From Chthonomonadales bacterium (GTDB lineage Bacteria; Armatimonadota; Chthonomonadetes; Chthonomonadales; CAJBBX01), in contig JBKJZI010000031.1 in the NCBI GenBank assembly GCA_046715155.1, positions 10,875 to 74,874 of the forward strand: 64,000 nucleotides of DNA, in the 5' to 3' direction. This document shows, piece by piece, positions 3,513-49,967 of the stretch. Under the pieces are notes generated by a model. The model was not told where the DNA came from. It saw only the letters and a program-made list of their open reading frames with translations, and searched no databases. The first letter of the stretch is position 1. Every line of letters begins with the position of its first letter. Position numbers and translations under genes: made by a program.

Positions 3513-5543
3513 CTAGGCCGCGTTCCTGATTCGCCGGAGCTCGGGGACACCCGTTAGATAGAGGTCTCGGCCCATAAACAGAAAGCGCATTCCGTCTCCA
3601 CCCAATGTGCCCATAAGTTCGACGCCGAGGTCTGAAGGCCGGATTCGCATTAGGAGGCCCGGCGCGTCGGCTTGCGGAATTCGGAAGACTGTCCATACTT
3701 TGCCATCCGGCCCTGCCTGAAAATCGTGGCTCTTCGACGGTGCGTCGTGGTTGTTGGAAGTTCCGCATATCAGCCCGGCATATACCCGCGAAGCAACGGT
3801 GCGACCGGTCCGAAGGTCCAGTTTGTAGACAGTAGACGGGTCGGTTTCGGCGGCCGACGCAGTGCCTATTAGCATTCCACCGGGCACTTCAGCGATAGGC
3901 CCGAGCGACTGTGCGCCGGGCAGCGGGATGAGCGGCGGAAGGAAGCGCCCCGTCATAGTGTCCAGCAGCAGCACCTTCGCTTCCTTTGGAGGCGGCGCGC
4001 TTTTCGTCTCGTCCGGCTGTACCCGCGTACTGATGGCAAGCTTGCGACCTCCATCTATTTCAGTAACCCATGAAACCTGAAGCTGTTGAAGCATTCCGCC
4101 GTCTTCTACTTCGCCAAGTTTCCCCGTTTTTGGGTCATACCACGCGATTCCAAAGCCCTTGTGATGGCGGTGACGCTGGGCGACTACGTAGATGAGCCCA
4201 TTGACGCCCTCGAAGATTCCGATGCCGGTGTGGCTGCCTTTCAAAACATCGCCGATGAACGCGACCTGTCGCGGATTGGCGCCCGGGTCGGTCGACGGAA
4301 TCCCCTTCACATCGCCGGCCCCCTCCTCGGAAGTGAACGCGCGGTTTAAATCGGCAACCGCAAATTGCGTGGACGGATATCCGCTCAAGTAGACCATCCC
4401 GCCGACTTTCGCGATGCTATAGGCATTCATCGCGCTTGGGTAACCAAGACCGCGAGTACTGTTTCGTGAGATGTCGAAGGAAAGAACGGGTCCGTACGGC
4501 CCGGTAGTTGCGAGTATCTGCGAAGGTCCAACTGGAATCATTCGCGTAATAGGCAATGCCTCGACACCAACGGTCAAGGGCCGTGAATTCCAGGCTGCGG
4601 CGGCACCGGGTTGGCTTGTGGCTGCCGTGCGTCGGAAGAGTAAGTTGACTTTTCCCGTAACGTCGGAATTCCGCTTATCGATCGCGACCTCAAACTGAGG
4701 TATCGGGCTAGAACGATGCCCGCGCGCGGAAGCTGGCGCCGGCAGCAGTTTTCCATCACGCAGCTCGTAGCGCCTTTCCGGCTCACCCGCCTTCTTGAAT
4801 ACGTTGGTAGCCGTCACCGACAGACCAGAGAGGTTGATGTAACCTTCAGTCGGCACTGTGAGGAGCGTGGTTTTTACCCCCGATGCTTTATCGATTGCAA
4901 TCAGGTCCCAGGGGCAGCCGCCGCGCGGCACAGCGTAAATGAATCTCAGGTCCTGGACTATGTAATATAGAAAGCCCGTCTCCGGGCGGCCGACATTTCC
5001 ATATTGTCGAATCTTGCGAGTGGCCGGGCTGTACAGCGCCACTTCCGAGGTACCGCCGGCGCCGAGCGCGACGGTCCCGTCCGGCCCCGGCGCCATTGAA
5101 TAGACCAGCGATCCTTTCGGGAAGGCCTTGCCCAGGTCCACCAGGCTATCCGCAACAAGGTCGTACTCCGCAAGGTGGCCGGGCGCGAGCATGCCAAGGT
5201 AGAGCTTGGAGCCTGCCAATGCCGTGCGCCATACATTGAGGCCGGTAACCGGAGGGTGCGTTTTAATGGTTCCCGTTGTCAGGTTGAGCGAAGCGACGTT
5301 AACGAGCTCCGTATTTCGAGTCCCCATTTTATATGAGATGAGCTGGACGAACTCGTTCTTGCCGGGGATTTGTATCTGATCTAAGGGCTTCGCAACGACG
5401 TGTCCTACGGGCTTACCGATGGTTTCCACGCTCAGCGGCTTGGCAGATCGCCAGTCGATGGGTTCGGGATTTTGTGGCCGCTCGGCAAACGTCGCTATCC
5501 CGGCAATAGAGCACAGGAGCCCAAAAGCAGCTCGAATTAACAT
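3513..5543 (-). CDS. Secreted protein of unknown function (signal peptide; repeated beta-strand-rich segments, possibly propeller-like)
   Basis: 676 aa. N-terminal MLIRAAFGLLCSIAGIATFA signal. No catalytic motif recognised. Recurrent short motifs such as DGTVALGAGG, GLIYVVAQ and DGKVWTVF. Sits inside the EPS operon. Confidence 0.75.
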   Translation of the reverse strand: MLIRAAFGLLCSIAGIATFAERPQNPEPIDWRSAKPLSVETIGKPVGHVVAKPLDQIQIPGKNEFVQLISYKMGTRNTELVNVASLNLTTGTIKTHPPVTGLNVWRTALAGSKLYLGMLAPGHLAEYDLVADSLVDLGKAFPKGSLVYSMAPGPDGTVALGAGGTSEVALYSPATRKIRQYGNVGRPETGFLYYIVQDLRFIYAVPRGGCPWDLIAIDKASGVKTTLLTVPTEGYINLSGLSVTATNVFKKAGEPERRYELRDGKLLPAPASARGHRSSPIPQFEVAIDKRNSDVTGKVNLLFRRTAATSQPGAAAAWNSRPLTVGVEALPITRMIPVGPSQILATTGPYGPVLSFDISRNSTRGLGYPSAMNAYSIAKVGGMVYLSGYPSTQFAVADLNRAFTSEEGAGDVKGIPSTDPGANPRQVAFIGDVLKGSHTGIGIFEGVNGLIYVVAQRHRHHKGFGIAWYDPKTGKLGEVEDGGMLQQLQVSWVTEIDGGRKLAISTRVQPDETKSAPPPKEAKVLLLDTMTGRFLPPLIPLPGAQSLGPIAEVPGGMLIGTASAAETDPSTVYKLDLRTGRTVASRVYAGLICGTSNNHDAPSKSHDFQAGPDGKVWTVFRIPQADAPGLLMRIRPSDLGVELMGTLGGDGMRFLFMGRDLYLTGVPELRRIRNAA

Positions 5544-5616: not shown

Positions 5617-7035
5617 CTATCTTACTTGTGATACTGTATGGATGCCGAATTGGACACGCTCCGACGGCGGAATCCGGCACACCACGGCGCGAAATTTCCC
5701 ATTGGCGGACCGCGGAATCTCCGCAACTGGTTCAAGTATCACCCGAACATCTCCCATTCGAGTGCGCAACCGTTCTATGATGGAGTGAGCGTCCGCCTCG
5801 CTAAAGCCTGGCGCCGGCGAATAGATCACTCGAATTTCCGTCAGCGACTCCTGAACGATTTGCGCCTCTCGGACCGGGAGGTTGGCCTTGAAGACAGGAT
5901 CAAGACGCCCGATTTGACGCCCATCACTCGTGTACAGCACGTCATCCGTGCGTCCCTCAATGCAAGATAACATGGGAAGCCGACGGCCACAAGGACACAC
6001 AGCGTCTTTAGGCGCGAGCGCTGCTCGGTCGCCTAGACGGTAGCGGATGAGCGGCATATCCGAGTTCAGCAGCCCGGTGCAGAGGACTTCGCCCGCGCCG
6101 TCGGGTGGAACCGCGCGACCCGCCTCAACCACTTCAATAATGCCGGCTTCGGGCCAGAGATGCATGTGCCCATGCTCGCACTCGCTTGCTGCCGCGACCA
6201 TTTCGGACATACCGTAGGTCTCACGCACCGGGCATTGAAAAGCCTGCGAAATTGCGTGGCGCTGATAGGAGTCGAGCGGCTCAGCGTCGGTGACCACAAC
6301 CTTCATCGCAAGGTCGTGTACGCCGGAATCCAGGGCTACCCTCGCGAGCGAATACAGAGCGGACGTATAGCCGCACAAATAAGTGATTCGGTGTTTCCGC
6401 AGGGCGTCCAGGTAGTGCGGTATCAAATCCGGCGCCAGGTGGTAAGCAGACATATAGAGCTGGTTTAGGGCTGCGTTCCACACCCAGAATGGTGGGTTTC
6501 GCTGTTGAACCGCGGTCACGAGCTGGCCGCCAATATGCGCCCATCGATCATGGCGGGACACGCCATACCATCGTCTCCAGCGGGCTTCAATGAGGGCGTA
6601 CCAGGATCGGGCAGTCTCCCGGGAGTACCACAATTCGATCGCCTTGCCGGTTGTTCCGCTGGTGTGTTCGTGGATCATACGCGCCGGGTCGCAGTCGGTC
6701 GAGAGGAAAGCGTGGGGATCGGCCCTCAGCGGCTCCTTCTCTAATATGGGCCACGCCTGGAGATCTTTTGAATTCGCCGCGTCGCGATTCACCCATTGTT
6801 CACGGTAATACGGCACCGTGTTTGAAGCGCGATCGAGTACTGCTTTCAAGCGCAGTGCCTGCCATTCGGCCCACTCCGTTTCGCTCCAGTGTTCCCTTTC
6901 CAGGGCTTGAGCCACCAGCCGGTCGGTATCGCTGCCGAATCTATTTGCGCGGAGCTTATAGCCCCACAATGTAGCGGCTCCGGAACGGAGGGGAGCGGGC
7001 AGGGAATGAAAGAGATTGAGAAGCGTAGGGCTCAA
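5617..7035 (-). CDS. Adenylate-forming enzyme, phenylacetate-CoA ligase / CapK / F390-synthetase family
   Basis: 472 aa. HEHTSGTTGKAIELWYS AMP-binding motif, ETYGMSE, and C-terminal catalytic lysine region RSANGKFRAV. Confidence 0.85.
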   Translation of the reverse strand: MSPTLLNLFHSLPAPLRSGAATLWGYKLRANRFGSDTDRLVAQALEREHWSETEWAEWQALRLKAVLDRASNTVPYYREQWVNRDAANSKDLQAWPILEKEPLRADPHAFLSTDCDPARMIHEHTSGTTGKAIELWYSRETARSWYALIEARWRRWYGVSRHDRWAHIGGQLVTAVQQRNPPFWVWNAALNQLYMSAYHLAPDLIPHYLDALRKHRITYLCGYTSALYSLARVALDSGVHDLAMKVVVTDAEPLDSYQRHAISQAFQCPVRETYGMSEMVAAASECEHGHMHLWPEAGIIEVVEAGRAVPPDGAGEVLCTGLLNSDMPLIRYRLGDRAALAPKDAVCPCGRRLPMLSCIEGRTDDVLYTSDGRQIGRLDPVFKANLPVREAQIVQESLTEIRVIYSPAPGFSEADAHSIIERLRTRMGDVRVILEPVAEIPRSANGKFRAVVCRIPPSERVQFGIHTVSQVR

Positions 7036-7099: not shown

Positions 7100-8986
7100 C
7101 TATACGGCGGCGGCTTGCGCCACCTGACTACGATCGCCGCAACAGGAATCGTGCCACAAGGCAATCATGGCAAGCTGGCGGACCAACATGTGCAGTTGGT
7201 CGTCTCCGGAGAGAAACGCATCCACCGTCGCCTGCAGCCGCCGGGGCTCGAAGGGCCCACTATCGAAGGGCGGCGTCCGGGGGAGATTGTGGACGACGTC
7301 GCGAAGGTCCGAGGACTCTCTCAAGTACCGCCACCATGGAGTTGCGAAGCCCCACTTGCGACCCCTGCGGATTGATACCGGAACTCGTTTTCCCGCGGTA
7401 TCGCGGAGTAAGCGCTTGCCCTTGCCCCGAGGGCCGTCGAACACCGCGGATGAAGGAAGAGCCGCAACCCCTTCTACAAGCCGGTAGTCGAGGAGAGGAA
7501 CCCGGCACTCAATCGACGCGCCCATGGTCATGCGATCGTTGCGATCAAGCAGCGAGCAGAGGAATGTGTGCTGATCACTGTACATAACCTGCCTCGCAGG
7601 CTCCGAAGGGTAGAGTAACCTGGCCTCCTCGAGGACCGCCTCCCTGTATTCGTATTCACCCGAAGGGCGCATTCCAAGGGCATCAAGCTCATTGGGGAGC
7701 ACGTCGCAGGCATTGAACAGGACAAACCGGTCGAGCGCACCGAGGTGCAAGAAACGTTGCAGCTTGCGGATCCGATTATTGACTTTCGGAATCCGCGCGA
7801 GGATAGGCATCGCAGCACGGCCGCCTCTTAGAAGCGCTGGGTACCGGAGCGGCTGATAACGAACATAGCCTCCCAGCGTCTCGTCCGCGCCTTCGCCTGA
7901 AAGTAGAACGGTTACGAGAGGCTTTGCGTACTCCGAAATGGCCAGGATATGGAGGTCGTTGCCATGCGCGAGCGGCTCATCATGCAGCCAGGTTGCGCGC
8001 CGCACCCTCGAGAACAGTTCCTCATCTGAAACGGTGAGCTCATGGTATTGCAGTGACCACCGCTCCGCGACCTGCTTAGCGAGCGGTCCCTCATCATAGC
8101 CGGCATCATCGAACCGTACCGTAAAACTAGCTACTCCGGAGCCGGCTTGCTCAGCGAGTGCGCCCGCGACACAGCTAGAATCCAGCCCCCCGCTCAGTAG
8201 AACTCCCACCGGGACATCGCTAATGCGACGCAGTCGAACCGAATCATCGAACGTCTCACCGTACCAACGAAGGGGATCGCGCGGGAGCTCGTCTCGTTGG
8301 CTGCGCGCTCTTTCCGAGAGGTTCCACCAACGCCGAACCGTGATCTCGCCATCCTTCCATCGCAGGTAGTGCCCGGGCAGTAGCCGCTTGACTCCCCGAT
8401 AAGGCGTTTTCTCCCCGGCGACATAGCGGAAACAGACGAGCTCTTCCCAACACGCCGGGTCGAACTCGGCGGGGATTCCGGCCTCGAACAACGCCTTTTC
8501 CTCGGAGCCGAAGACGAACGAACCGTCGCGGAATGCATAGTAGAGCGGCTTGATTCCGAGGCGGTCCCTCGCGATAAACAATGCACGCTCGCGAAGGTCC
8601 CAAATCGCGAACGCAAACATTCCGTTTAGCCGGTCCAACATCGCCGGCCCCTCTTCGGCAAAAAGGTTGAGGAGGACTTCCGTATCGGTGTCTGATCGGA
8701 ATCGATAGCCGCGGCCCTCCAGCAAGGGCCGAATGTCACGGTAATTGTAATCCTCGCCATTGTAGACGATGCAGTATCGTCCGTCTTCCGAGAACATCGG
8801 CATATGGCCCCGCTCGGACAGGTCCAAAATGGCAAGTCGGCGCGAGGCGAGAGCGACCCCTTCATCCATCCAATGACCCGAGTCGTCCGGTCCCCGGTGA
8901 CGCAGCGAGTCGCGCATCGCCACAAGCGTTTGCTCATCGACGGGAGATCCCGGCCGGTCCCATACGGCGCCTGCTATTCCGCACAT
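7100..8986 (-). CDS. asnB: Asparagine synthase (glutamine-hydrolysing) family amidotransferase, paralogue 1
   Basis: 628 aa. Starts MCGIAG (Ntn Cys2 nucleophile). PP-loop VLLSGGLDSSCVAG. Confidence 0.92.
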   Translation of the reverse strand: MCGIAGAVWDRPGSPVDEQTLVAMRDSLRHRGPDDSGHWMDEGVALASRRLAILDLSERGHMPMFSEDGRYCIVYNGEDYNYRDIRPLLEGRGYRFRSDTDTEVLLNLFAEEGPAMLDRLNGMFAFAIWDLRERALFIARDRLGIKPLYYAFRDGSFVFGSEEKALFEAGIPAEFDPACWEELVCFRYVAGEKTPYRGVKRLLPGHYLRWKDGEITVRRWWNLSERARSQRDELPRDPLRWYGETFDDSVRLRRISDVPVGVLLSGGLDSSCVAGALAEQAGSGVASFTVRFDDAGYDEGPLAKQVAERWSLQYHELTVSDEELFSRVRRATWLHDEPLAHGNDLHILAISEYAKPLVTVLLSGEGADETLGGYVRYQPLRYPALLRGGRAAMPILARIPKVNNRIRKLQRFLHLGALDRFVLFNACDVLPNELDALGMRPSGEYEYREAVLEEARLLYPSEPARQVMYSDQHTFLCSLLDRNDRMTMGASIECRVPLLDYRLVEGVAALPSSAVFDGPRGKGKRLLRDTAGKRVPVSIRRGRKWGFATPWWRYLRESSDLRDVVHNLPRTPPFDSGPFEPRRLQATVDAFLSGDDQLHMLVRQLAMIALWHDSCCGDRSQVAQAAAV

Positions 8987-10086
8987 AGGCCCTCATGCTC
9001 CGCCCGGGCAGTTCGTGCGGTTGTAACCCGCTCTATCAGGTCCAACCACATTGGACGGATTCGCTCCCACGAGGATTGCTCAGCGAGAGCCCTGCCGTTG
9101 ACAGAAAGCCGTTCGGCGAGATTCGGATCGTCCAACAATCGGCAAATGGCTGCAGCGGCCGAATCCGCGTCTTCGTCGGGTACGAGCAGGCCCGTTTCTT
9201 CATTCTGTAGAAGGTAGGGCACGCCGCCTACTGCCGTGGCAACGACCGGCATACCCATTGCCGCAGCCTCGACGACAGAGACCGGCATGTTGTCAATTCT
9301 GTTCGTGTTCAGATAGATGTCCGCAGCGTCTCCCTCGCGCGTTTTGGCCTCCATGTTCAGAAATCCAGCGAATCGGACGCTGTTGGCAACACCCAGAGAT
9401 TCCGCCAGCGCCTGGCATTCCTGCCCGAGACCCTTCTCTTCACCCGCCATTACCATCGAGGCATTCGGATGAGTTTGCTTTACCCTGGCGAAGGCGTGTA
9501 TTGCCATCTGCGGATTGTAGATTGGGTGGAATGCTCGCATCCACAGAATCCTTGGTTGAAGGTGAATTCGGCGGCGGTAGGGGTATTGTCCCACATTGAT
9601 GATGTTGGCGATGACTTTCGCCTCGTAGCCGTATCGCTGGATTGCGTCGGCAAGATAAGCGGAGGGGACTACGATCGACGCCGCCCGGTCCAGCACCCGC
9701 CGGCTCCAGGCCAGGTGTTTCGCCATGAACTCCGGCATCGCCCCACCCCGGAGCACCATGATGATGGGGATTCCGAATCGCCTGGCCAGCAAGCTGGCGG
9801 CATCCTCAACCACAAAGCTCGACCCGCCGAAAACCTGGAGAATCATCGCATCGGTGCACCGATGCCGGGCAATAATGGTACCCAGGATATTCAGCATCCT
9901 GGCGTAACGGTTCAGCCGGCTGCTCACGGAGACAACCGGGAAGCCTTCCGATGCAAGAAGATCGGAGAGTCGCTCTCCCTGGGTGGTGACGTAGCCGGGC
10001 GTTCGACCGACCATAGGGCCGACGATGCAAAGTCGGGGAAGGGGTCTAGGGTCTAGGGTCTGGGGTTTAGGGTCTAGGATAAACAC
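8974..10086 (-). CDS. Glycosyltransferase family 4 (GT-B, Glycos_transf_1)
   Basis: 370 aa. VVEAAAMGMPVVATAVGGVPYLLQNEETGLLVPDED (E-x7-E region). The only start codon upstream of the first beta-strand RLCIVGP is GTG 10086. Codons 4-15 are encoded by a heptamer tandem repeat. Confidence 0.85.
   Translation of the reverse strand: MFILDPKPQTLDPRPLPRLCIVGPMVGRTPGYVTTQGERLSDLLASEGFPVVSVSSRLNRYARMLNILGTIIARHRCTDAMILQVFGGSSFVVEDAASLLARRFGIPIIMVLRGGAMPEFMAKHLAWSRRVLDRAASIVVPSAYLADAIQRYGYEAKVIANIINVGQYPYRRRIHLQPRILWMRAFHPIYNPQMAIHAFARVKQTHPNASMVMAGEEKGLGQECQALAESLGVANSVRFAGFLNMEAKTREGDAADIYLNTNRIDNMPVSVVEAAAMGMPVVATAVGGVPYLLQNEETGLLVPDEDADSAAAAICRLLDDPNLAERLSVNGRALAEQSSWERIRPMWLDLIERVTTARTARAEHEGLCAE
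10042..10078. repeat. Tandem heptamer array 5 x 7 nt (GGGTCTA on + strand, CTAGACC-type on coding strand) inside the 5' end of the GT4 gene
   Basis: Read directly: GGGTCTA GGGTCTA GGGTCTG GGGTTTA GGGTCTA GG. Confidence 0.9.
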
Positions 10087-10105
10087 TACTCACCACCGTA
10101 ATTAG

Positions 10106-10140
10106 CCATTCGTCATTCGTCATTTGTCATTCGTTTTTCG
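10106..10140. repeat. Tandem heptamer array 5 x 7 nt (YCATTCG) filling the asnB-2 / GT4 intergenic leader
   Basis: Read directly: CCATTCG TCATTCG TCATTTG TCATTCG TTTTTCG. It ends exactly at the asnB-2 stop codon (10141-10143). Confidence 0.9.
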
Positions 10141-12045
10141 TTATACCTCGCAGGCGAGTTGAACTGAGAGAAGCATGATGGCGCGCTGATAGAGGCCTTC
10201 TCGAGAGATTCCCGGCGACTGCCTGCCTTCACAGAAGTCCTCTACGATCGGTTTGTATGCCTCTTGCCGGAAGAATTGAGGAAGCGCGCTTCCCGGGCCG
10301 AGCAGCGTGTCGAGAAGGCGAGCTCGGAATTCTGAATCCACCCACCGGTCCACCGGGATCATGAATCCGCCCTTCGGTTTCGACGCTACGGATGCTGGAA
10401 GGCGTTTTGCGGCTACGCCTCTCAGTATTCGCTTGCCGGTCTTCTCGCGGACCTTCAGTCTATGCGGAAGAGTCAGCCCAAAATCAAAAAGGGTCTCATC
10501 CAGCATCGGGACGCGTACTTCCAGGCTCTCTTTCATGCTCGCCGTGTCCACTTTGAATAGATAGTCATCCGCGAGGGTCAAGCGGGTCTGGACTTCGGTT
10601 GCGTGCGCCGATAGACGCTCTAGTCTTCCTGCTCCACGCGGAAGCCGGTAGTCCCATACCGGCTCGAAGTGGCGGCGGACGGGGAGATGGCCGGCCGAAA
10701 TCAGCAGCTCGCGATGCTCCGTTGGGCGAATCCAGCAGAGGAGCGTTTGCAGGATGTCGGAATCGTCCGCAGCCGAGAGCGATCGGAGGCGGGATGGAAG
10801 ACGGTCCGATACAATCCCCGTACGTGCCAAAAGACCGGCGCCGGCCGCAGCGCCAACGCGGGCCGGCGCCGGAATCCGCTGCCATCGGAGTATGTCCTCA
10901 ATGCGCCAGAAACTGTCATAGCCGCCGAATCCCTCGTCTCCCCCATCACCGGAGAGCGCAACCGTGACGTATTTTCGCATAAGGCGGCACACCGCATTCG
11001 CGGCAAAAAGGGATGTGTCGGCATAAGGCTGGCCCGCCTGCCGAAGGACGCCCGTAACGTGGTCCCAGGTGCCCGCCAACCCGCCCATGTCCAGAGTCAG
11101 GTGGTCGCTGCCGATATGACGGGCGACTTCCAAAGCAGCCCAGGTCTCATCATAGTCGTCTTCCGGGAACCGGACGTTGAAAGAGCGGATTCCGTTCGAC
11201 GCGGCTCGCTGCGCCGACGCGCTCACCAGGGAAGAATCGATTCCGCCGCTGAGCAGCGTACCAAGCGGCACGTCGCTCTCGAGTTGACTGGAGACGGCCG
11301 TGTCGATGAGATCGGCAGCCCTTTCCACCGCCAATTCTTCAGATAAACTGTCATCCGGGGCGATCGTCCAGCGATGATACGTGCTGCGCTGGATGTTTAC
11401 GTGTTCAGATTCCAGTTGGGCGACCAGAGTCTCACCGGGCTGCAGCGAACGGATGCCGAGGAAGAACGTTTGGGGCGCCGGGATATAGAAGAGCGAGGCG
11501 AAGTCATGCACCGCCTGAGAATCCGGAGTCCTGTCGACGCCGGGCATCTGGAGCAAGGCGCGAATCTCGCTTGCGAACGCGAGCCGGCCGGTTGTGTGGG
11601 AGTAAAAGAGCGGTTTGATTCCGAAGCGGTCGCGTGTGAGTAGTAAAAGCTTTCGCTTCAGGTCGAATACGGCGATGGCGAACATCCCACGGAGCTTGCG
11701 GACGAAATCAGCCCCATCTTCCTCATACTGGTGCAGAATGACCTGCGTGTCGGAATGCCCGCGGAATCTGTGCCCCTTCGCCTCCAGCTCTCTGCGCAGC
11801 TCGCGGTGATTGTATATCTCACCATTGTAAACGGTCCAGACGGTCTCGTCTTCGTTGGACATGGGCTGCAGCCCTAGCGGAGAGAGGTCTATAATGCTGA
11901 GACGGCGGTGGATGAGCGTACAGTCGGGCCATTCGCGCACTTCGCCGGCGTCAGGACCGCGATGGCGCAGCGACGCCTCGACCATTCCGGCGGCCCCCTG
12001 ACGGTCTCGAGGAGGCTCCCCTATCCATCCCGCGATTCCGCACAT
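10141..12045 (-). CDS. asnB: Asparagine synthase (glutamine-hydrolysing) family amidotransferase, paralogue 2
   Basis: The track ORF starts at 12060 (MAPSPMCGIAG). Ntn amidotransferases need Cys at position 2, so ATG 12045 (MCGIAGWIG) is the likely start. PP-loop LLSGGIDSSLVSA. Confidence 0.9.
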   Translation of the reverse strand: MCGIAGWIGEPPRDRQGAAGMVEASLRHRGPDAGEVREWPDCTLIHRRLSIIDLSPLGLQPMSNEDETVWTVYNGEIYNHRELRRELEAKGHRFRGHSDTQVILHQYEEDGADFVRKLRGMFAIAVFDLKRKLLLLTRDRFGIKPLFYSHTTGRLAFASEIRALLQMPGVDRTPDSQAVHDFASLFYIPAPQTFFLGIRSLQPGETLVAQLESEHVNIQRSTYHRWTIAPDDSLSEELAVERAADLIDTAVSSQLESDVPLGTLLSGGIDSSLVSASAQRAASNGIRSFNVRFPEDDYDETWAALEVARHIGSDHLTLDMGGLAGTWDHVTGVLRQAGQPYADTSLFAANAVCRLMRKYVTVALSGDGGDEGFGGYDSFWRIEDILRWQRIPAPARVGAAAGAGLLARTGIVSDRLPSRLRSLSAADDSDILQTLLCWIRPTEHRELLISAGHLPVRRHFEPVWDYRLPRGAGRLERLSAHATEVQTRLTLADDYLFKVDTASMKESLEVRVPMLDETLFDFGLTLPHRLKVREKTGKRILRGVAAKRLPASVASKPKGGFMIPVDRWVDSEFRARLLDTLLGPGSALPQFFRQEAYKPIVEDFCEGRQSPGISREGLYQRAIMLLSVQLACEV

Positions 12046-12049
12046 AGGG

Positions 12050-13258
12050 CTAGGGGCCACCTTTCGCAGCAGAATCCGGCGCCGAATCTACGCCGACGGA
12101 GACGAGTGTACGGGGTAAGTCTTGCTCACCCAGCTTCAAGAGCGGGCGGATGCGCGCCAGATACTCATCATATCCAAACATCGGAGCCGCCTGGAGCCCG
12201 TTCTTGCTATGCTCCATCCATCTGCCCGAATTCCGCACGTAATCCTGCACCGCATCTGCAAATCCGCGGATATCATCCTTTGGAAGCGCCGACCCAGTAC
12301 TGCACTGACGTAGAATCTGCGGAATCGACCCGACGTCGCTGGCCAACGGGACGACACCATACGCCATTGCCTCACTCAAGACCTTGGGCCAACCTTCGGA
12401 GTCGCTAGGGAGCATTATAATGTGAGATTCTCGGTAAAAGCTCGGAATTCCACGGCGCGGAATCCATCCGTGAAATTTCGCGCAATCGGAGATTCCGTTC
12501 TCGGTCGCCCGACGCTCCAGGGACTCGCGGTCCGGGCCGTCACCTATTAGATCAAGCGTTGAGTCTACACCAATCCGTTTCAGCTCGCCTAGAATTTCCA
12601 GCGCTCGGGCGGCCCCCTTTTCAACCTCGATTCCGCCTACATAGAGCAGTCGGACAGGGAGTCCCAGACTCTTGTCCTTTGCTGCAGCCGCCCCCTCGTT
12701 CAGCTCCTCTCTTGTAAGGCATGGATTCAGGAAAGAATGAACATGGCCGGGTTCGCCAACCCACTCACCATTGACGGTGACCTGCGCGCCGTGACGTCCC
12801 TTTCGGAGCCACCAGCGCTGGAATCGGTAGCTGAGCGGATCGTCCGCGGTGGGCCTCCAATTGCCGGCGTATTTGATCCAGCGCGTGCGGTGACGTGGCA
12901 TTAGGGGCAGTAGGAGGACCGCAAGCAAGCTGATGTTCGCTGGACAGCGCACGTGAATGACATCCGCGTTTTGACTCGCGCGCCAAATTGCCGCGCAATA
13001 GCCCGGCCAACGGGCGGGAATGCTCAGTTTGTCGACGAACCTTTCTCCGCCAGACGGCAGAACGGGGCGAAGCTCTACCCCTGGAGAGGTGTAGGGTGAT
13101 GCGCTGTCCGGAGCAGGCTCCGAGTGCAAAGGCGCGACGTGTACCACCGAGTCGAAGAGGCTTGCGAGGTAGTCGATCTCCCGAACTGTCGGTCCCCACC
13201 CCACAACGGTCCCATCGCGCTGATAGTGCGGAGTATGCGAAATGACCGCAAGCCTCAT
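12050..13258 (-). CDS. Glycosyltransferase family 4
   Basis: MRLAVISHTPHY is a typical GT-B start at ATG 13258; the track start 13306 is a GTG overlapping the upstream gene. C-terminal SDSEGWPKVLSEAMAYGVVPLASDVGSIPQIL. Confidence 0.8.
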   Translation of the reverse strand: MRLAVISHTPHYQRDGTVVGWGPTVREIDYLASLFDSVVHVAPLHSEPAPDSASPYTSPGVELRPVLPSGGERFVDKLSIPARWPGYCAAIWRASQNADVIHVRCPANISLLAVLLLPLMPRHRTRWIKYAGNWRPTADDPLSYRFQRWWLRKGRHGAQVTVNGEWVGEPGHVHSFLNPCLTREELNEGAAAAKDKSLGLPVRLLYVGGIEVEKGAARALEILGELKRIGVDSTLDLIGDGPDRESLERRATENGISDCAKFHGWIPRRGIPSFYRESHIIMLPSDSEGWPKVLSEAMAYGVVPLASDVGSIPQILRQCSTGSALPKDDIRGFADAVQDYVRNSGRWMEHSKNGLQAAPMFGYDEYLARIRPLLKLGEQDLPRTLVSVGVDSAPDSAAKGGP

Positions 13259-13292
13259 AGGATTCGCGTCCGGTCTCCCCTTACAGTATCGG

Positions 13293-14876
13293 TCATGCTC
13301 CGGCACGCGTGTCCGCGAGAAGTCCGAGTTCCGTTTTCAGTTGGCTGGCCGCGCGTGTCGCGCGCCAGAGCTTCCACGGCGCGGATAGCCAGAGCCACGC
13401 CACTTCTACCGCCCTCTGTCGCCGGTGTGCGGCCGTCCAGAAATACAACAAGTATAGAGGCAGCCAGTACGGCCGAGGGTAGTAACGCCGTACGGTATAT
13501 ACCTGGGTTGGCGGCGGGTAGGGCGAGAGCCATGTCGCGCTATTCCGCCACCACGCGCCATAGGTACGCATCCCTCCTGACGGGGCCTTATGGTGCGTCT
13601 CTATCGCCTTCGGGTTGAATATTATCTCCTTGCCGTTAAGGTACAGCCGGGCGCCGAGATCGTGATCGGCTCCGGACCCACGGTTGAAGGCGACGTCTAA
13701 TCCCCCGACATCGAGGAGCGCATCCCGTCTTACAAGGCAATTTCCCGTCGCGAGCACGTCCGAAAGCTGATGATGTCGTTTCTGCTCGGGAATGTAGTCG
13801 ACTGTTTTCCATGGAGCGAGCGAAACTCCCGTAGAAGCATCGGCGCCGGAGTATTCCACCGCGCGCACGTGCTCCTCCAGAAGGGCGTCCCACGCCTCGG
13901 TGTCATCCTCCCACAACAGACACCACTCTCCCGAAGCTTGCTTGATGGCTGCATTACGTGAGGTGGACTGGCCGGGCCGGTCCTGATATATCACTCGGAA
14001 TTTGGGGCCTTCAAACGGGGCGTACACCTCCGGCTGCCGCCGATCCTTCGGCGTTTGATCCACGACAATCACCTCATCCGGAGGTGGATTCTGTTTCAAC
14101 AGCGATTCAATGGATCTGGCAATGTAATCGTACCGGTTGAGCGTCGGTATGATCGCCGTGATTCCACGGACATCCTGCCGTTTCTCCGTACCGATCAGAC
14201 GCGTAGGGCCTACTGCCGAAGCGCGTTTGGGCCTGGGATGCTGTCGGACTCGGCGGCGGGCGCGCGCGAACGCGGTCCACACCTTGAACGGATTATCTCC
14301 GGCAAGGGGCGCCCAGAACGCTGCCCACGTCGTATGCAAACGCCCAATGTGACGGAGCACAAATACAAATTCATCGATCAGGCCAATGGGATCGACCGCG
14401 GGCAGAGGCGGCCTGGAGGTGAGCCAGGCCGGATCGTGACTCACGCGGCCGCCTGCAGCCAGGAGTCGGAATCCAAAATCCATAAGTCGCGCCGACGGGC
14501 TTTCATACGCGGAATCGAAACCGCCCAGATCGCGAAGGACATTCGGCCGAATCATGCACAGGGAAGGGGTCGCTCTCCAGCTTGAGCTGCGGGACTTCGA
14601 ACAAGGATCAAGCAGAAACCAGTTGAGACAGGCGAACCGCGAGAGCCCCAGAGCGCCTGCGCCTCCCAAAAGCAGCCCTGCGTGTGAAAAGTCGTCCCTG
14701 GCCGCCGCGGATGCCGGAATCTCCTGAGCGCACGAGTGGAGTGCTGCGTCGTAGATCACCGCCGTTTCCGCCGGGCAATTGGCGATAGCGCTCATGGCTT
14801 CGGAGGCGGACTCGTAGCAGCGGAGTCCATGCGGCAGTACGGAAGCATCTCGGCCAAATGGGAAAAGCTCAACCAT
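13293..14876 (-). CDS. Two-domain glycosyltransferase: degenerate GT2-like N-terminal half + canonical GT2 C-terminal half
   Basis: 527 aa. C-terminal half has ITAIIPTLNRYDYIARSIESLLKQNPPPDEVIVVDQTP and CLLWEDDTE (DxD-like). N-terminal half retains only a CMIRPNVLRDLGGFDSAY...MDFGFRLL-type GT2 tail. Confidence 0.8.
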   Translation of the reverse strand: MVELFPFGRDASVLPHGLRCYESASEAMSAIANCPAETAVIYDAALHSCAQEIPASAAARDDFSHAGLLLGGAGALGLSRFACLNWFLLDPCSKSRSSSWRATPSLCMIRPNVLRDLGGFDSAYESPSARLMDFGFRLLAAGGRVSHDPAWLTSRPPLPAVDPIGLIDEFVFVLRHIGRLHTTWAAFWAPLAGDNPFKVWTAFARARRRVRQHPRPKRASAVGPTRLIGTEKRQDVRGITAIIPTLNRYDYIARSIESLLKQNPPPDEVIVVDQTPKDRRQPEVYAPFEGPKFRVIYQDRPGQSTSRNAAIKQASGEWCLLWEDDTEAWDALLEEHVRAVEYSGADASTGVSLAPWKTVDYIPEQKRHHQLSDVLATGNCLVRRDALLDVGGLDVAFNRGSGADHDLGARLYLNGKEIIFNPKAIETHHKAPSGGMRTYGAWWRNSATWLSPYPPPTQVYTVRRYYPRPYWLPLYLLYFWTAAHRRQRAVEVAWLWLSAPWKLWRATRAASQLKTELGLLADTRAGA

Positions 14877-40177: not shown

Positions 40178-41841
40178 CCAGACTCCGGATTCTGGCTGTT
40201 CTCTTGGTCGCCGGCTGCTCTACTCCTCGCGGGGTGAACCGCGCCCCATCAATCCCAGCGGAATCCGGCCGATTCCGCAATGTCGCGTCCGAGAGCGGAA
40301 TCGGCGGATTTCAGCACGTTGACGGCGGCAGCGGGCGCAAGTTCTTCCTTGAGCAGGTGGGAGCGGGAGTCGCGATCTTCGACTACGACGGCGACGGATG
40401 GCAGGACGTCTACCTCTGTTCCGGAATCGCTCTTCCTGGGTATGCGGGACCGCCCGGACAGAACCGCCTCTTTCGGAACAAGCAGGACGGGACTTTCGAG
40501 GACGTGACCGATTCCGCGGGTGTCGCGTGCCGCAAGTACGCGATCGGCGCTGCGGCGGCGGACTACGACAACGACGGGAGGATCGACCTCTACGTCACCT
40601 GCTTCGGCGGGAACGTGCTCTACCGGAATCTCGGCGAGGGTAAGTTTGAGGACATCACGCTGAAAGCTCGCGTTGGGGGCGGGAAGCGGTTGAGCTCCAG
40701 CGCGGCGTGGGGCGACTACGACGGCGACGGCTACCTGGACCTTTTCGTCTGCAATTACGTGAAGTACCGGCTGGAGGAGGACCTCTGGTGCGGGAAAATC
40801 GCCGGCCACAAGAGCTATTGCGGGCCTAACCTCTACGAGCCGGATTCCGCTATCCTTTTCCACAATAACCGGGACGGCACGTTCACCGACGTGTCCGATA
40901 CCTCCGGAATCGGAAAGCAAGCCGCGAACGGCCTCGGCGTGGTCTGGCTCGATTACGACGACGACGGCGATCAGGACATCTTTGTGGCGGACGACCAGAC
41001 TCCTAATCGCCTCTGGCGCAATAACGGCAACGGCACGTTCACGGACGTCGCGCTGGCGATGGGAGTCGCCGTGGGCGAGCGGGGCAACGCGCAGGCGGGA
41101 ATGGGTGTTGACTCCGGCGACTTCGACAACGACGGCGACCTGGACATCCTGGTGACCAATTTCAGCGAGGAGACCAACGCCCTCTATCTGAACGAAGGCG
41201 CCGCCTTCCGCGACATCTCCTTCCCCTCCGGAATGGGCGCGGCCACCCTGATGTACCTCGGATTCGGCACGGGGTTCCTGGACTACGACAGCGACGGCCT
41301 GCTGGACATGTTCTTCGCCAACGGCCACGTGCTGGACGACATCGAGACTTACTCCGACGCCGTCACCTGGAAACAGTCCAATCAGCTCTTCCGCAACATC
41401 GGCGACCGCCGGTTCGAGGAAGTCTCGGCTGCCAGCGGAATCTCCGAGGGTAAGCGGGTCTCGCGCGGCGCGGCATTCGGCGACCTCTTCAACCGCGGCC
41501 GCACCGACATCGTGGTGAACGTCCTCCGCGAGCAACCCCTGGTCCTGCGCAACGAGACCGCGCCGGATTCCCACTGGATATCCCTGGACCTTCGGGCGAG
41601 CAAGGGGAATCCGCAGGCGATCGGCGCAAAGGTCTGGCTCAACGCCGGCGGAATCACCCAGCGCCGCGATATCAAATCCGCCGGCTCCTACGCCTCCTCC
41701 AACGACCCCCGCCCCCTCTTCGGCCTCGGCAAGAACAAAACCATAGATTCCGTCCGAATCCGCTGGCCCGGGGGCCGAGAATCCGAGATCAAAACGCCGC
41801 AGGTGGATCAGATCCTGCGCGTCGACGAGCCGACGCATTGA
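40174..41841 (+). CDS. CRTAC1-family lipoprotein (FG-GAP/VCBS + ASPIC/UnbV), copy 2
   Basis: 555 aa. ATGA overlap with the previous gene. Lipobox LVAGC. Same DxDxDG repeat series. C-terminal PQAIGAKVWL...KSAGSYASSNDPR...IRWPGG. Confidence 0.9.
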   Translation: MTRLRILAVLLVAGCSTPRGVNRAPSIPAESGRFRNVASESGIGGFQHVDGGSGRKFFLEQVGAGVAIFDYDGDGWQDVYLCSGIALPGYAGPPGQNRLFRNKQDGTFEDVTDSAGVACRKYAIGAAAADYDNDGRIDLYVTCFGGNVLYRNLGEGKFEDITLKARVGGGKRLSSSAAWGDYDGDGYLDLFVCNYVKYRLEEDLWCGKIAGHKSYCGPNLYEPDSAILFHNNRDGTFTDVSDTSGIGKQAANGLGVVWLDYDDDGDQDIFVADDQTPNRLWRNNGNGTFTDVALAMGVAVGERGNAQAGMGVDSGDFDNDGDLDILVTNFSEETNALYLNEGAAFRDISFPSGMGAATLMYLGFGTGFLDYDSDGLLDMFFANGHVLDDIETYSDAVTWKQSNQLFRNIGDRRFEEVSAASGISEGKRVSRGAAFGDLFNRGRTDIVVNVLREQPLVLRNETAPDSHWISLDLRASKGNPQAIGAKVWLNAGGITQRRDIKSAGSYASSNDPRPLFGLGKNKTIDSVRIRWPGGRESEIKTPQVDQILRVDEPTH

Positions 41842-48029: not shown

Positions 48030-49967
48030 TTATCCTAATCCATAGTGTTCCAGCCACGCCTGGAACATGAGTATATCCCACAGAGCGAGCTGCCGATTCC
48101 GGCGTTTGGTCTGATGTTCGCGCCATACTTGATCGACCACTCCAGCGTTGAAGTACCCTTCTCGGCGAAGCCGTGCAGGCTCCAGGAGCGCCGCTGCCCA
48201 CTCTCGAAGCGGGCCGCGGAGCCAGCTGTCCAATGGAAGCGTAAAGCCGGCTTTGGGCCGCTCGACCAGGGCCGGCGGAACATAGCGATAGAGCGCCCGC
48301 CTTAAGAGTTGCTTACCTTTGCCATCCGATATCTTCATCGACAGAGGAATCCGCCAGGAGAGGGCAAACAGCCGGTGATCCAACAAAGGCTCTCGCGCCT
48401 CAAGGCCGACGGACATGCTTGCCCGGTCGACCTTAACGAGGATGTCGTCGGGGAGATAGCGCATCTGATCCGAGAGCATCATTCGCTCGGCAAACGGCAT
48501 TCCTGGTACAGCGGTGTTCGGGGCGTCGTCGAAGTCTGACGCTCCCAGTACCACCGATTCCGGCGTCAGCCAGTGGGACTGGATGTTCCTGAAGAACTGC
48601 CAGTCTCCTCGGGAGCTCAACGCCTGCGCCAGTTTGTGGACTTTATCGGCCGGATTCCGCTCTCGCAACCGTGGAAATACGCCGCCTCCTGCCAGGTCCC
48701 ATGCCGCGGGAGGGATCGCGCGCATAAGTCGACCGACCGCTTTACGCGCGGGGACAGGGAGGCGCCGAACGTTCGCCCACATCCGCGGTCCCCACAGGTA
48801 GCGGGTGTAACCACCGAACAGCTCATCGCCACCGTCCCCACTGAGCGCGACCGTAACAGATTCCCTCGCGAGTCTGGACACGAGGAGGGTCGGGATCTGC
48901 GAGGCATCGCCAAACGGCTCATCGTAAACTTCGGGCAATCGCGGAATCACTTCCATTGCCTCGGTGGAAGTTACGTAGAGTTCCGTGTGGTCTGTGCCCA
49001 GATGTTTCGCGACGCCGAGCGCCCACGCCGCTTCGTCATATGCCTTTTCGCGAAATCCGATGGAGAACGTCTTGACCGCGTTTGAAGATTGCTCACACAT
49101 CAAGGCCGTCACGAGCGAGGAGTCAATCCCTCCAGAAAGGAACACGCCGAGCGGAACGTCCGCAACCATTCGCAAGCGCACGGATTCATGCAGCGCTGCT
49201 TCGAGCTCGCCGGTTGCTGATTCCGCATCTACAATCTGGGTCTGCACTCCCGCGACAGCAACATCTTCGGCACGCCAGTAAGCGCGCGGCTCGCCCGCCA
49301 GGCCGGAGTCAATGCTGATTTCAAGGACGGAACCGGCTGGAAGCTTTCGGATTCCGCAATAGATCGATTGCGGCGCCGGAACGTAGCCGTACCGTACGTA
49401 TTCCAAGAGCGCGTCACGGTCCACCTCAGAGTCGAAGGCTGGATGGACCCGCAGCGCCTTCAGCTCCGATCCGAATAAGAACGACCTGCCGCAAGTCCCA
49501 TAGTAGAGCGGTTTTACGCCCAGGCGGTCACGCGCGAGGATCAGGCGGCGACTTTGACTGTCCCACAGCGCGAAGGCGAACATTCCCACGAAGCGGTCCA
49601 GCGCCCGCTCCAGTCCCCACTCTTCCACCGCCGCCAGTATGACCTCGGTGTCGGAATGCCCGCGGAATCGCACGCCCTGGTCGCTTTCGAGAGTCGCTCG
49701 CAGCTCGGGATGGTTGTAGACCTCGCCATTGTACGCGATGACAAACCGGCCCGAAGACGAAACCATGGGCTGATGACCGGCGGCGGAAAGATCGATGACA
49801 GAGAGGCGGCGGAATCCGACCGCGAAGCCGGCACCTGCGTCCGCCCAGACGCCGCAATCGTCCGGCCCTCGGTGCTGCAGCTTTGCCGCCATTCGGCCTG
49901 CGATGTCGCAAAGGCGCTCTTCAGGATCGGTGGAACCTACGCTAAGGAATCCGGCGAATCCGCACAT
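48030..49967 (-). CDS. asnB: Asparagine synthase (glutamine-hydrolysing) family amidotransferase, paralogue 3
   Basis: 645 aa. MCGFAGF start (Cys2). PP-loop VFLSGGIDSSLVTA. Confidence 0.92.
   Translation of the reverse strand: MCGFAGFLSVGSTDPEERLCDIAGRMAAKLQHRGPDDCGVWADAGAGFAVGFRRLSVIDLSAAGHQPMVSSSGRFVIAYNGEVYNHPELRATLESDQGVRFRGHSDTEVILAAVEEWGLERALDRFVGMFAFALWDSQSRRLILARDRLGVKPLYYGTCGRSFLFGSELKALRVHPAFDSEVDRDALLEYVRYGYVPAPQSIYCGIRKLPAGSVLEISIDSGLAGEPRAYWRAEDVAVAGVQTQIVDAESATGELEAALHESVRLRMVADVPLGVFLSGGIDSSLVTALMCEQSSNAVKTFSIGFREKAYDEAAWALGVAKHLGTDHTELYVTSTEAMEVIPRLPEVYDEPFGDASQIPTLLVSRLARESVTVALSGDGGDELFGGYTRYLWGPRMWANVRRLPVPARKAVGRLMRAIPPAAWDLAGGGVFPRLRERNPADKVHKLAQALSSRGDWQFFRNIQSHWLTPESVVLGASDFDDAPNTAVPGMPFAERMMLSDQMRYLPDDILVKVDRASMSVGLEAREPLLDHRLFALSWRIPLSMKISDGKGKQLLRRALYRYVPPALVERPKAGFTLPLDSWLRGPLREWAAALLEPARLRREGYFNAGVVDQVWREHQTKRRNRQLALWDILMFQAWLEHYGLG

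Follow-up and report, generated by a model that had tools for sequence, protein, structure and literature searches.

Two adjacent heptanucleotide arrays at the 5' end of a GT4 glycosyltransferase gene in a Chthonomonadales polysaccharide operon

Two arrays between asnB-2 and the GT4 core

The tightly packed polysaccharide operon in the window (the whole stretch of DNA analysed, 64 kb) contains the gene of a GT4-family glycosyltransferase (GT4; 8974..10086, minus strand, 370 aa), which overlaps asnB-1 by 13 nt. The upstream cistron, asnB-2 (10141..12060, minus strand), encodes AsnB-like amidotransferase 2, and its true start is probably the ATG of MCGIAG at 12045. Both heptamer arrays lie between the asnB-2 stop codon and the conserved core of GT4. 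Direct reading of the plus strand gives, unit by unit, GGGTCTA, GGGTCTA, GGGTCTG, GGGTTTA, GGGTCTA and GG at 10042-10078 (array 1), and CCATTCG, TCATTCG, TCATTTG, TCATTCG and TTTTTCG at 10106-10140 (array 2). The sequences and coordinates in the initial annotation were thus exact, and the period of 7 is confirmed by TRF, which reports 5.3 copies for array 1 (10042-10078, 86% matches, score 60) and 4.0 copies for array 2 (10107-10134, 90% matches, score 49). No TRF tandem repeat of the window scores higher than arrays 1 and 2, which are its only period-7 arrays at a score of at least 30; lowering the cut-off to 24 adds just five period-7 rows, all of them trivial with two copies. Three-unit probes (up to 3 mismatches) likewise matched the window only at the sites of array 1 and array 2, and they matched 0 of 100 dinucleotide-preserving shuffles. 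The longest perfect tracts in the two arrays measure 20 nt (2.9 units) and 18 nt (2.6 units).

The two arrays are 27 nt apart, and array 2 continues to 10099 with a degenerate sixth unit (coding strand CTAATTA). Read in the sense of the genes, array 2 (10099..10140, minus strand) therefore consists of CGAAAAA, CGAATGA, CAAATGA, CGAATGA and CGAATGG followed by this degenerate unit, and each of the good units carries an overlapping ATG and TGA. The TAA of asnB-2 directly adjoins the array, as expected from its proposed position in the leader from the asnB-2 stop (10141) onwards, and the array, which is sense-oriented, ends 13-20 nt ahead of the GT4 start. By direct reading, the spacer between the arrays (10079..10098, minus strand) holds the SD-like GGTGGTGAG (10089-10097), an in-frame TGA (10090-10092) just upstream of the GT4 start, the GTG itself (10084-10086) and codons 2-3. 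Array 1 (10042..10078, minus strand) follows as GT4 residues 4-15, LDPKPQTLDPRP; its template unit is GGGTCTA, and its coding units are CCTAGAC, CCTAAAC, CCCAGAC, CCTAGAC and CCTAGAC. The open reading frame context bears out that array 1 occupies codons 4-15 and that the only usable start is GTG 10086: no other canonical start lies in frame ahead of the conserved RLCIVGP strand, and an identical 370-aa NCBI protein begins at the same codon. A mechanical 18-codon open reading frame (MTNDEWLITVVSSVYPRP; 10067..10123, minus strand) runs from an array-2 ATG across the GT4 start to the TAA of a variant unit in array 1; nothing indicates that it is used.

The part of GT4 that array 1 encodes appears to be poorly ordered. 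The AF2 model of the protein shows a confident fold (mean pLDDT 88), in which residues 1-11 have a pLDDT below 50, residues 1-18 are devoid of secondary structure and the first strand comprises residues 19-22. Among homologues, the N-termini preceding RLC[IF]VGP vary freely in both length and sequence.

The imperfections of array 1 are exactly those that keep the GT4 frame open. An array of canonical CCTAGAC units has an in-frame TAG at every third unit. The third (phase-c) unit of array 1 is CCCAGAC, with T>C exactly at the would-be stop codon (TAG to CAG), and the array ends ahead of the next phase-c unit. As had been proposed from the non-triplet unit, gain or loss of one unit shifts the frame: the simulated allele lacking one unit encodes 51 aa, that with one additional unit encodes 15 aa, and neither has a rescuing start. 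Moreover, adding canonical units always brings a TAG, even at +3 units, and array 1 therefore cannot breathe like a contingency tract.

On the GT4 template strand, array 1 forms a G-quadruplex-type motif (10035..10072, plus strand) with six G3-4 tracts and loops of 2-4 nt. The motif is predicted from sequence (G4Hunter maximum 1.92); it is the only one on the plus strand of the window and one of two in the 128 kb of both strands. The leader RNA is predicted to fold less stably than most shuffles (z +0.93; 171 of 200 fold at least equally well), and folding the junction as RNA or as DNA yielded nothing stronger than the shuffled controls. Rfam and tRNA scans were negative, and the scan of the gap between asnB-2 and GT4 predicted neither a promoter nor a terminator. 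A reading of the conserved GGTATAA at the asnB-2 3' end as a -10 box was rejected; this sequence can equally be read as retained C-terminal asnB-2 codons, and the promoter scan places no site there. The suggestion that array 2 tunes spacing thus finds no substrate as far as promoter spacing is concerned.

Turnover of the arrays among relatives

Comparison with three relatives, which are metagenome contigs, at the level of assembled sequence shows that the arrays turn over fast through unit gain, loss and homogenisation. Homologous arrays are found at one position in three independent assemblies. Array 1 has five units, in frame, in all three carriers, and its unit differs from lineage to lineage; no out-of-frame allele was seen among the three carriers compared. 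In the closest relative (L001), the periodicity of array 1 and its G tracts are lost, and the gene is intact; here, the flanks align with those of the window without gaps at 88-90.5% identity, whereas only 23 of 35 positions of array 1 are identical. In a second relative (L002), array 1 consists of a different homogenised unit, CCGAAAC (GGGTTTC on the G-rich strand), so that the G3 tracts are retained in two of the three lineages (the window and L002) despite the changed unit. L002 also has an additional CCC-type array, ACCCAAC x4.4 (GGGTGTT on the G-rich strand), just upstream of the asnB-1 start. Array 2 comprises 3, 5-6 or 8-9 units across relatives and differs between them in steps of 7 or 14 nt, as exemplified by the 14-nt indel between the window and L001. 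One candidate explanation of the pair, that both arrays are blocks of a single ancestral array, was suggested by their common 7-nt register in the window and was discarded, as the register is off by 1 nt in L001 and L002.

The start codon of GT4 appears to have moved along with the repeats. In L002 it is likely an ATG inside array 2, and in L001 this may also be the case. In the window, the equivalent ATG is followed by an in-frame TAA and TGA, and GT4 thus depends on the GTG with its modest SD-like GGTGGT.

Neither array is present in L003 and L004, and relatives with 70-74% identity are without both. The best named homologues belong to MAGs of Acidobacteria, Blastocatellia, Chthonomonadales and Polarisedimenticolia. 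A search for asnB-2 homologues returned, apart from asnB-2 itself, nothing nearer than 65% and no further carriers of the junction, and a scan of metagenomes that used the conserved 5' core of GT4 (TGCATYGTCGGNCCNATGGTCGG) as its anchor gave just two unrelated matches.

Heptamer arrays in other genomes and published systems

At least 120 genome stretches, spread over many phyla, contain three-unit arrays of the array-2 type. In the 120 stretches recovered by the three-unit array-2 probe, 7 is the commonest period (366 of 1098 TRF rows), and the median copy number of these 366 arrays is 4.4. The stretches contain 102 pairs of adjacent arrays with gaps of up to 60 nt; like the pair in the window, 46 of these combine different units, and 48 are inverted. 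Additional CGAATGA-type arrays recur within the same genomes among the recovered loci, in both orientations and, by crude gene calls, with no clear orientation or 5'-end bias toward genes. In three-unit scans of viral contigs, CGAATGA matched 20 stretches and GGGTCTA 10, and composition-matched permutations matched 1, 7, 17, 5 and 4. The idea of CGAATGA as a special cross-phylum motif was weakened by these permutations, since those of the same composition reach 1, 7 and 17 viral stretches against 20. Chance is estimated to yield well under one match per probe for arrays of an arbitrary heptamer, and such arrays are far above chance abundance.

STRR are high-copy, genome-wide heptamer families. 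The arrays in the window share with them the tandem heptameric organisation, but they probably have other units, occupy a single locus in the window and have non-cyanobacterial best named homologues, and they are therefore not assigned to STRR. As cited in PMC4692102, the STRR heptamers of Calothrix and Nostoc are tandem, mostly intergenic and of unknown function. The same source and PMC4679880 also cite heptanucleotide long simple-sequence repeats (Mrazek et al. 2007).

A closer parallel to array 1 is offered by the GGGNATC and GGGGAYT heptamers of Xanthomonas and Nostoc, which have large genomes and are free-living (Rehm et al. 2015, PMC4692102). GGGNATC arrays have a mode of 4 units, vary in length and sequence between close relatives, and are placed between co-oriented open reading frames with the G-rich strand antisense at the start of the frame; for G-rich heptamers more broadly, the bias is toward an antisense position within ~50 bp of the start or a sense position just past the stop (PMC4692102). 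Phase variation was judged unlikely for them, and no function was found (PMC4692102). The arrays described here resemble these heptamers in the 7-nt unit and the copy number of ~4-5 (5.3 and 4.0), in the antisense position of the array-1 G-rich strand at the GT4 5' end between co-oriented genes (as in the L002 arrays), and in the sequence-predicted G-quadruplex-type motif. Further points of likeness are variation in length and sequence between close relatives at the same position and the absence of a tie to one gene class. However, the units differ (GGGTCTA here, GGGTTTC and GGGTGTT in L002), there is a single locus within 64 kb, and array 1 has become coding sequence for a protein tail.

Array 2 is better compared with the TAACTGA direct repeats that, in marine Beggiatoaceae, some cyanobacteria and Bacteroidetes, precede the start codons of many genes within a genome by a few nucleotides, and for which a role in translation, in place of the Shine-Dalgarno sequence, has been proposed (MacGregor 2015, PMC4679880). 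Both are A-rich on the sense strand, have a unit ending in TGA, are intergenic with 2-6 or more copies just upstream of a start with a weak Shine-Dalgarno sequence, and are scattered across unrelated phyla. Unlike the TAACTGA repeats, array 2 has the unit CGAATGA, which elsewhere occurs in both orientations, often as inverted pairs, with no genome-wide regulon evident.

Heptanucleotide tracts do drive switching in Haemophilus influenzae, in which (TGAAAGA)13-38 upstream of hmw1A/hmw2A and (AACAACC)1-13 at the gene of a TonB-dependent receptor are phase-variable (Power et al. 2009, PMC2651432), and documented phase-variable heptanucleotide tracts span 6-38 perfect units (PMC2651432). Like the arrays in the window, these tracts have a 7-nt unit and lie upstream of a surface-related gene or at its 5' end, where gaining or losing units would change the frame or the leader. 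However, the H. influenzae tracts are long and perfect, belong to a host-adapted pathogen and have ON/OFF alleles, whereas those in the window are short and imperfect and belong to a soil-type uncultured bacterium.

Interpretations of the arrays

It is reasonably probable that both arrays are ordinary heptanucleotide repeats filling the sole unconstrained stretch of the exopolysaccharide operon. The passing remark in the initial annotation about dispersed, STRR-like heptamers has proved a better lead than its main proposal. The free-to-vary stretch would be composed of the asnB-2/GT4 intercistronic spacer and the dispensable, disordered N-terminal tail of GT4, and the arrays probably arose there by replication slippage, a mechanism taken from the literature. 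They would belong to the heptamer class that is over-represented in free-living bacteria with large, GC-rich genomes. Within it, array 1 would fall in the CCCNNNN/GGGNNNN subclass, which is G-quadruplex-capable by sequence and whose G-rich strand runs antisense where the open reading frame begins, and array 2 would be of an A-rich type, CGAATGA, seen again in many phyla. Array 1 has been absorbed into the GT4 reading frame. We infer that the effect on the cell is small and confined to an unstructured A-rich leader, the start-codon context and a 12-residue Pro-rich tail, and that the arrays do not constitute a dedicated high-frequency switch. Slippage in array 1, as a rare event, would inactivate GT4.

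Against this ordinary-repeat reading, there are no other heptamer arrays in the 64 kb, so a richness like that of Xanthomonas or Nostoc is not established for this genome. Two arrays 27 nt apart in otherwise array-free DNA do not look like the outcome of independent neutral events, and something local favours arrays; this factor could be the lack of constraint, or it could be function. The five units and G3 tracts retained in array 1 could likewise have been kept by selection acting on a G-quadruplex or on length, beyond the maintenance of frame. If ordinary repeats are indeed what is seen, the locus illustrates, cleanly and on a small scale, how heptamers colonise one unconstrained place in an operon and how a repeat is recruited into a coding sequence, in which a TAG to CAG change in the third unit keeps the frame, and the start codon alternates between a repeat-supplied ATG and a nearby GTG. 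Since such heptamers are common in free-living GC-rich bacteria, genome scans of these organisms call for caution: the presence of a repeat with a non-triplet unit where a surface-glycan gene begins does not, taken alone, count as evidence of phase variation.

Function could take the form of a cis-regulatory element, although we regard this as unlikely. A template-strand G-quadruplex or a C-rich tract in the mRNA that binds protein or RNA (array 1) and a periodic platform for an RNA- or DNA-binding protein (array 2) would jointly control the expression of GT4 and of asnB-1, which is translationally coupled to it. The uniqueness of the array-1 motif on its strand is consistent with such an element, as are the persistence of G3 tracts in the window and L002, the second CCC-type array preceding asnB-1 in L002, and the unstructured leader. 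Placement also agrees with published patterns, both the bias of G-rich heptamers (PMC4692102) and the sense orientation of TAACTGA repeats just upstream of a start (PMC4679880). However, the gene is intact in L001 although array-1 periodicity and G tracts are gone, L003 and L004 manage without either array, and CGAATGA arrays elsewhere, judged by crude gene calls, show no consistent orientation to genes; there is also no known binding protein, and the published G-rich heptamers are without a demonstrated function (PMC4692102).

Short tandem repeats whose unit is not a multiple of 3, located at the 5' end of surface-glycan genes, are the classic substrate for slipped-strand mispairing. On this basis, the initial annotation proposed a switch in which gain or loss of an array-1 unit shifts the GT4 frame and toggles one sugar addition. 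In its full form, this reading has GT4 turned off and on reversibly, with a change in the exopolysaccharide, and the number of array-2 units modulating GT4 translation. We consider this quite improbable. Repeat position (codons 4-15 for array 1, the leader for array 2) and the 7-nt unit are those of a contingency locus, the simulated alleles follow the frame logic, array 2 changes in heptamer steps, and heptanucleotide tracts are known to switch genes in H. influenzae (PMC2651432). The long homogeneous hypermutable tract of such loci is nevertheless missing, as the perfect tracts stay below 3 units, compared with 6-38 in known heptamer switches. Array length across relatives gives a divided answer: array 2 varies as the proposal predicts, but array 1, on which the switch would depend, remains at five in-frame units in all three carriers. 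The TAG brought by each canonical addition also argues against reversible switching, as does the dispersal of similar arrays beside all sorts of genes in many free-living phyla; the latter had been named as evidence against the proposal, and it applies in part, in that the array-2 unit is common in many phyla and has no clear bias to 5' ends. For the analogous repeats of Xanthomonas and Nostoc, phase variation was likewise deemed unlikely (PMC4692102). A phase switch is thus possible but unsupported. If a switch or a regulatory element did exist here, contingency-locus or G-quadruplex control would extend to the synthesis of exopolysaccharide in uncultured soil bacteria.

It is very unlikely that the arrays belong to a cross-phylum system of ~30-nt heptamer-periodic modules that are made or read by dedicated machinery rather than by plain polymerase slippage, and that here would set intercistronic expression or provide a low-frequency contingency switch for the composition of the exopolysaccharide of a free-living soil bacterium. 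Modules of this kind would appear as single arrays, hetero-unit pairs and inverted pairs, and the phyla concerned would be Verrucomicrobiota, Planctomycetota, Chloroflexota, Cyanobacteria, Bacteroidota and some Acidobacteriota.

Finally, an assembly error, or decay of GT4 to a pseudogene with repeats spread over its 5' end, is highly improbable: reliance on the GTG, with in-frame stops following the ATG that is probably used in L002 (and perhaps in L001), would fit decay, but the arrays are shorter than a sequencing read and recur at the same place in independent assemblies, and the GT4 open reading frame is full length, 87% identical to that of its nearest relative, confidently folded in the model and kept open through array 1 by a specific variant unit.

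Two heptamer arrays in an exopolysaccharide operon

On the plus strand, array 1 (10042-10078) reads GGGTCTA GGGTCTA GGGTCTG GGGTTTA GGGTCTA GG and array 2 (10106-10140) reads CCATTCG TCATTCG TCATTTG TCATTCG TTTTTCG, exactly as in the initial annotation, which had described them as two adjacent heptamer arrays. They are the two top-scoring tandem repeats that Tandem Repeats Finder returns for the whole 64-kb window (period 7 in both; 5.3 copies and score 60 for array 1, 4.0 copies and score 49 for array 2). No further period-7 array in the window scores 30 or more, and a threshold of 24 adds just five trivial two-copy period-7 rows. Three-unit probes allowing up to three mismatches match only at the two arrays, with no match in 100 shuffles; both arrays are genuine, and chance is ruled out.

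At 60% G+C, the window forms a large exopolysaccharide locus in which the minus strand carries almost every large ORF. Among its products are a Wzc-like tyrosine autokinase, Wza-like exporters, several GT4 and GT2 transferases, sugar aminotransferases, a CapK-like adenylating enzyme (5617-7035), a bifunctional fucokinase/GDP-fucose pyrophosphorylase (54053-56737) and three AsnB-like amidotransferases, namely asnB-1 (7100-8986), asnB-2 (10141-12060, minus strand) and a third paralogue (48030-49967), which score under the cut-off of the XrtA/PEP-CTERM amidotransferase family. The neighbouring genes asnB-1, GT4 (a glycosyltransferase gene; 8974-10086, minus strand), asnB-2 and another glycosyltransferase gene (12050-13306) overlap or abut, the sole gap being 10087-10140. 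We consider it probable, though well short of assured, that the two arrays are simple-sequence repeats of the ordinary heptanucleotide kind, filling the only unconstrained stretch of this tightly packed operon, and that one of them has been absorbed into a dispensable N-terminal tail of GT4, its reading frame held open by selection.

On the coding strand, the asnB-2 stop TAA is followed by CGAAAAA CGAATGA CAAATGA CGAATGA CGAATGG CTAATTA CGGTGGTGAGTA and then by GTG TTT AT CCTAGAC CCTAAAC CCCAGAC CCTAGAC CCTAGAC CCCTTCCCCGACTTTGC..., the end of which encodes LPRLCIVGP. As initially annotated, GTG 10086 is the only usable GT4 start: no other canonical start lies upstream of the conserved first strand before an in-frame TGA (10090-10092) is reached, GGTGGT precedes the GTG at a 5-nt spacing, and an NCBI contig encodes an identical 370-aa protein with the same start. 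In-frame TAA and TGA codons block the array-2 ATG, and GTG is therefore used. Every CGAATGA unit of the array-2 region (10099-10140, minus strand) contains overlapping ATG and TGA, so that the 7-nt period places starts and stops in each of the three frames; there are mini-ORFs (MTNDE*, MTNG*) and an 18-codon ORF (10067-10123) overlapping the GT4 start. The asnB-2 ORF opens at GTG 12060 (MAPSPMCGIAG...). The identical NCBI protein, at 614 aa, therefore starts at Met26, which would drop the N-terminal catalytic Cys; the true start is likely the ATG of MCGIAG, 12045. Scans found no sigma-70-like promoter or terminator in the 10087-10140 gap and no matching Rfam family, and comparison with shuffled sequences shows no excess structure in the leader RNA (z +0.93; 171 of the 200 shuffled versions are at least as stable). 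GT4 is therefore most probably translated from a polycistronic mRNA as an internal cistron.

A regulatory role, in which array 1 would act as a template-strand quadruplex or array 2 as a periodic protein-binding leader, is favoured by the fact that array 1, on the template strand at the GT4 ORF start, is the sole G-quadruplex-type motif on its strand in 64 kb (G4Hunter score 1.92); nonetheless, we judge such a role unlikely. The window's only other canonical motif of this type lies inside asnB-2 on the coding strand (11064-11086, minus strand), and its strongest G4Hunter region is 41689-41730 (-2.04, C-rich on plus). Array 1 resembles, in its G-rich motif on the template strand at an ORF start, the GGGNATC and GGGGAYT repeats of Xanthomonas and Nostoc (Rehm et al. 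2015, PMC4692102). These are dispersed and chiefly non-coding, with a mode of four units, form quadruplexes in vitro, and sit between co-oriented ORFs, preferring the antisense strand within 50 bp upstream of an ORF or the sense strand just past a stop; their length and sequence differ between close relatives, and a phase-variation role was judged unlikely (PMC4692102). Mrazek et al. (2007), as cited there, reported heptameric repeats to be generally over-represented and put forward polymerase slippage. The closest analogue of array 2 is the sense-strand TAACTGA heptamers just upstream of start codons (MacGregor 2015, PMC4679880). The window arrays probably belong to an already known kind of repeat.

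Array 1 as coding sequence

RLC[IF]VGP is conserved in all GT4 homologues, whose starts lie ahead of this motif; their N-terminal tails of 1 to ~30 residues are unrelated in sequence. In the AlphaFold2 model of GT4 (mean pLDDT 88, pTM 0.86), pLDDT is below 50 at residues 1-11, residues 1-18 lack secondary structure, and a first strand forms at 19-22. Since homologue tails vary freely and the model is unstructured there, array 1 codes for a disordered, dispensable tail.

Since 7 is not divisible by 3, TAG falls in frame at every third unit when the CCTAGAC array is canonical. In the window, the TAG-phase unit is CCCAGAC (CAG, Gln), and the array stops just short of the next one. In simulations, adding one, two or three canonical units gives a 15-aa product every time, and removing one or two units leaves 51 or 88 aa. 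The initial annotation had proposed a slipped-strand phase switch, and its expectation that gain or loss of one unit truncates the transferase (15 and 51 aa) was borne out. However, array 1 is boxed in by the need for an open frame, unlike a freely expanding contingency tract, and the longest perfect tracts in the two arrays are 2.9 and 2.6 units, compared with 6-38 perfect units in the heptanucleotide tracts accepted as phase-variable in Haemophilus influenzae (Power et al. 2009, PMC2651432), which makes a true switch quite improbable. That the arrays reflect an artefact or a pseudogene is hardly credible.

Turnover of the arrays among relatives

A protein search found four relatives with at least 70% identity across most of the length, and their contigs (L001-L004) were compared. 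In L001 (87% amino acid identity), array 2 has 8-9 units with a 14-nt sub-period (CGAATGACAAATCA), and array 1 has equal length, five units, in decayed form (CCTGAAC GCTAAGG CCTATAC CCCAGGC GCTAAAT; mean unit identity 0.51 vs. 0.89 in the window). Flanking DNA of the window and L001 aligns ungapped at 88-90.5% identity, array 1 matches at just 23/35 positions, and array 2 is separated by a 14-nt indel. L002 (78%) has three array-2 units, and its array 1 consists of five units homogenised to another heptamer (CCGATAC CCGAGAC CCGAAAC CCGAAAC CCGATCT); L003 (74%) and L004 (70%) have neither array. Thus, length polymorphism in 7-nt steps holds for array 2 (3 to 8-9 units) and not for array 1, which keeps its five units and frame but not its sequence. 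Because the L001 and L002 arrays differ in units or sequence and L003 and L004 lack them, the arrays are a lineage-specific, fast-turning-over trait of this operon's intercistronic spacers.

L002 has lost asnB-2 save its last 14 codons and carries a third array, ACCCAAC x4.4 (antisense strand G-rich). This array lies past the GT4 stop, ~25 nt ahead of the true start of asnB-1; the sites noted in L002 are 2586-2632 and 3785-3815. The recorded asnB-1 gene call (start 3907) overlooks the MCGIAG start at ~3838. The only in-frame GT4 start in L002 is an ATG inside array 2; L001 also has one, and its GT4 could start there or, equally, at the homologous GTG with a GGAG-type site upstream. All five loci share an unchanged GGTATAA (window 10141-10147), which forms the last codons and the stop of asnB-2; it persists in L002 and L003, where asnB-2 is gone, and might have been kept as a -10-like box (TATAAY) serving GT4 or be a mere remnant.

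Heptamer arrays in other genomes

A scan of one genome per species with three array-2 units (CGAATGACRAATSACGAATGA) matched at least 120 stretches, against an estimated chance expectation of about one. The matches listed, often with several loci per genome, come from Verrucomicrobiota, Planctomycetota, Cyanobacteria, Chloroflexota, Bacteroidota and a few Acidobacteriota; the window's own genome is absent among them. In these listed stretches, tandem repeats most often have period 7 (366/1098 rows; 158 of the CGAATGA class, 208 of many other units), with a median of 4.4 copies. Adjacent pairs at most 60 nt apart number 102 among the matches listed: 48 are inverted, 46 combine different units, as the window does, and 8 share one unit. 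Inverted pairs (48 among the 366 arrays of L007-L126, in Verrucomicrobiota, Planctomycetota, Chloroflexota, Cyanobacteria and Bacteroidota) comprise a ~32-nt array, a ~30-nt loop and the reverse-complement array, giving a long heptamer-built hairpin (e.g., L007 5774-5837; L024 7642-7741; L059 1489-1577 and 5217-5297); among the matches listed, they rarely lie between divergent genes (2/48). By a crude ORF analysis of the listed matches, most arrays lie outside ORFs or no more than ~150 nt from an over-extended 5' end, with no clear orientation bias toward neighbouring genes. Several of the L007-L126 contigs end inside an array.

In the viral collection, three-unit scans matched 20 stretches for CGAATGA, 10 for GGGTCTA and 107 for TAACTGA, and composition-matched permutations matched 1, 7, 17, 5 and 4. 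There, arrays of three units far exceed chance whichever heptamer is used; the window's units are therefore not special, and the phenomenon is heptamer periodicity as such. Mosaic arrays, whose unit switches from block to block within a single register, occur at L082 990-1290 (AAAATGA, then CGAATGA, then CAGATGT) and L013 7210-7372 (a CACGGAC block nested in GAATGAC), showing how adjacent different-unit arrays can arise from one tract.
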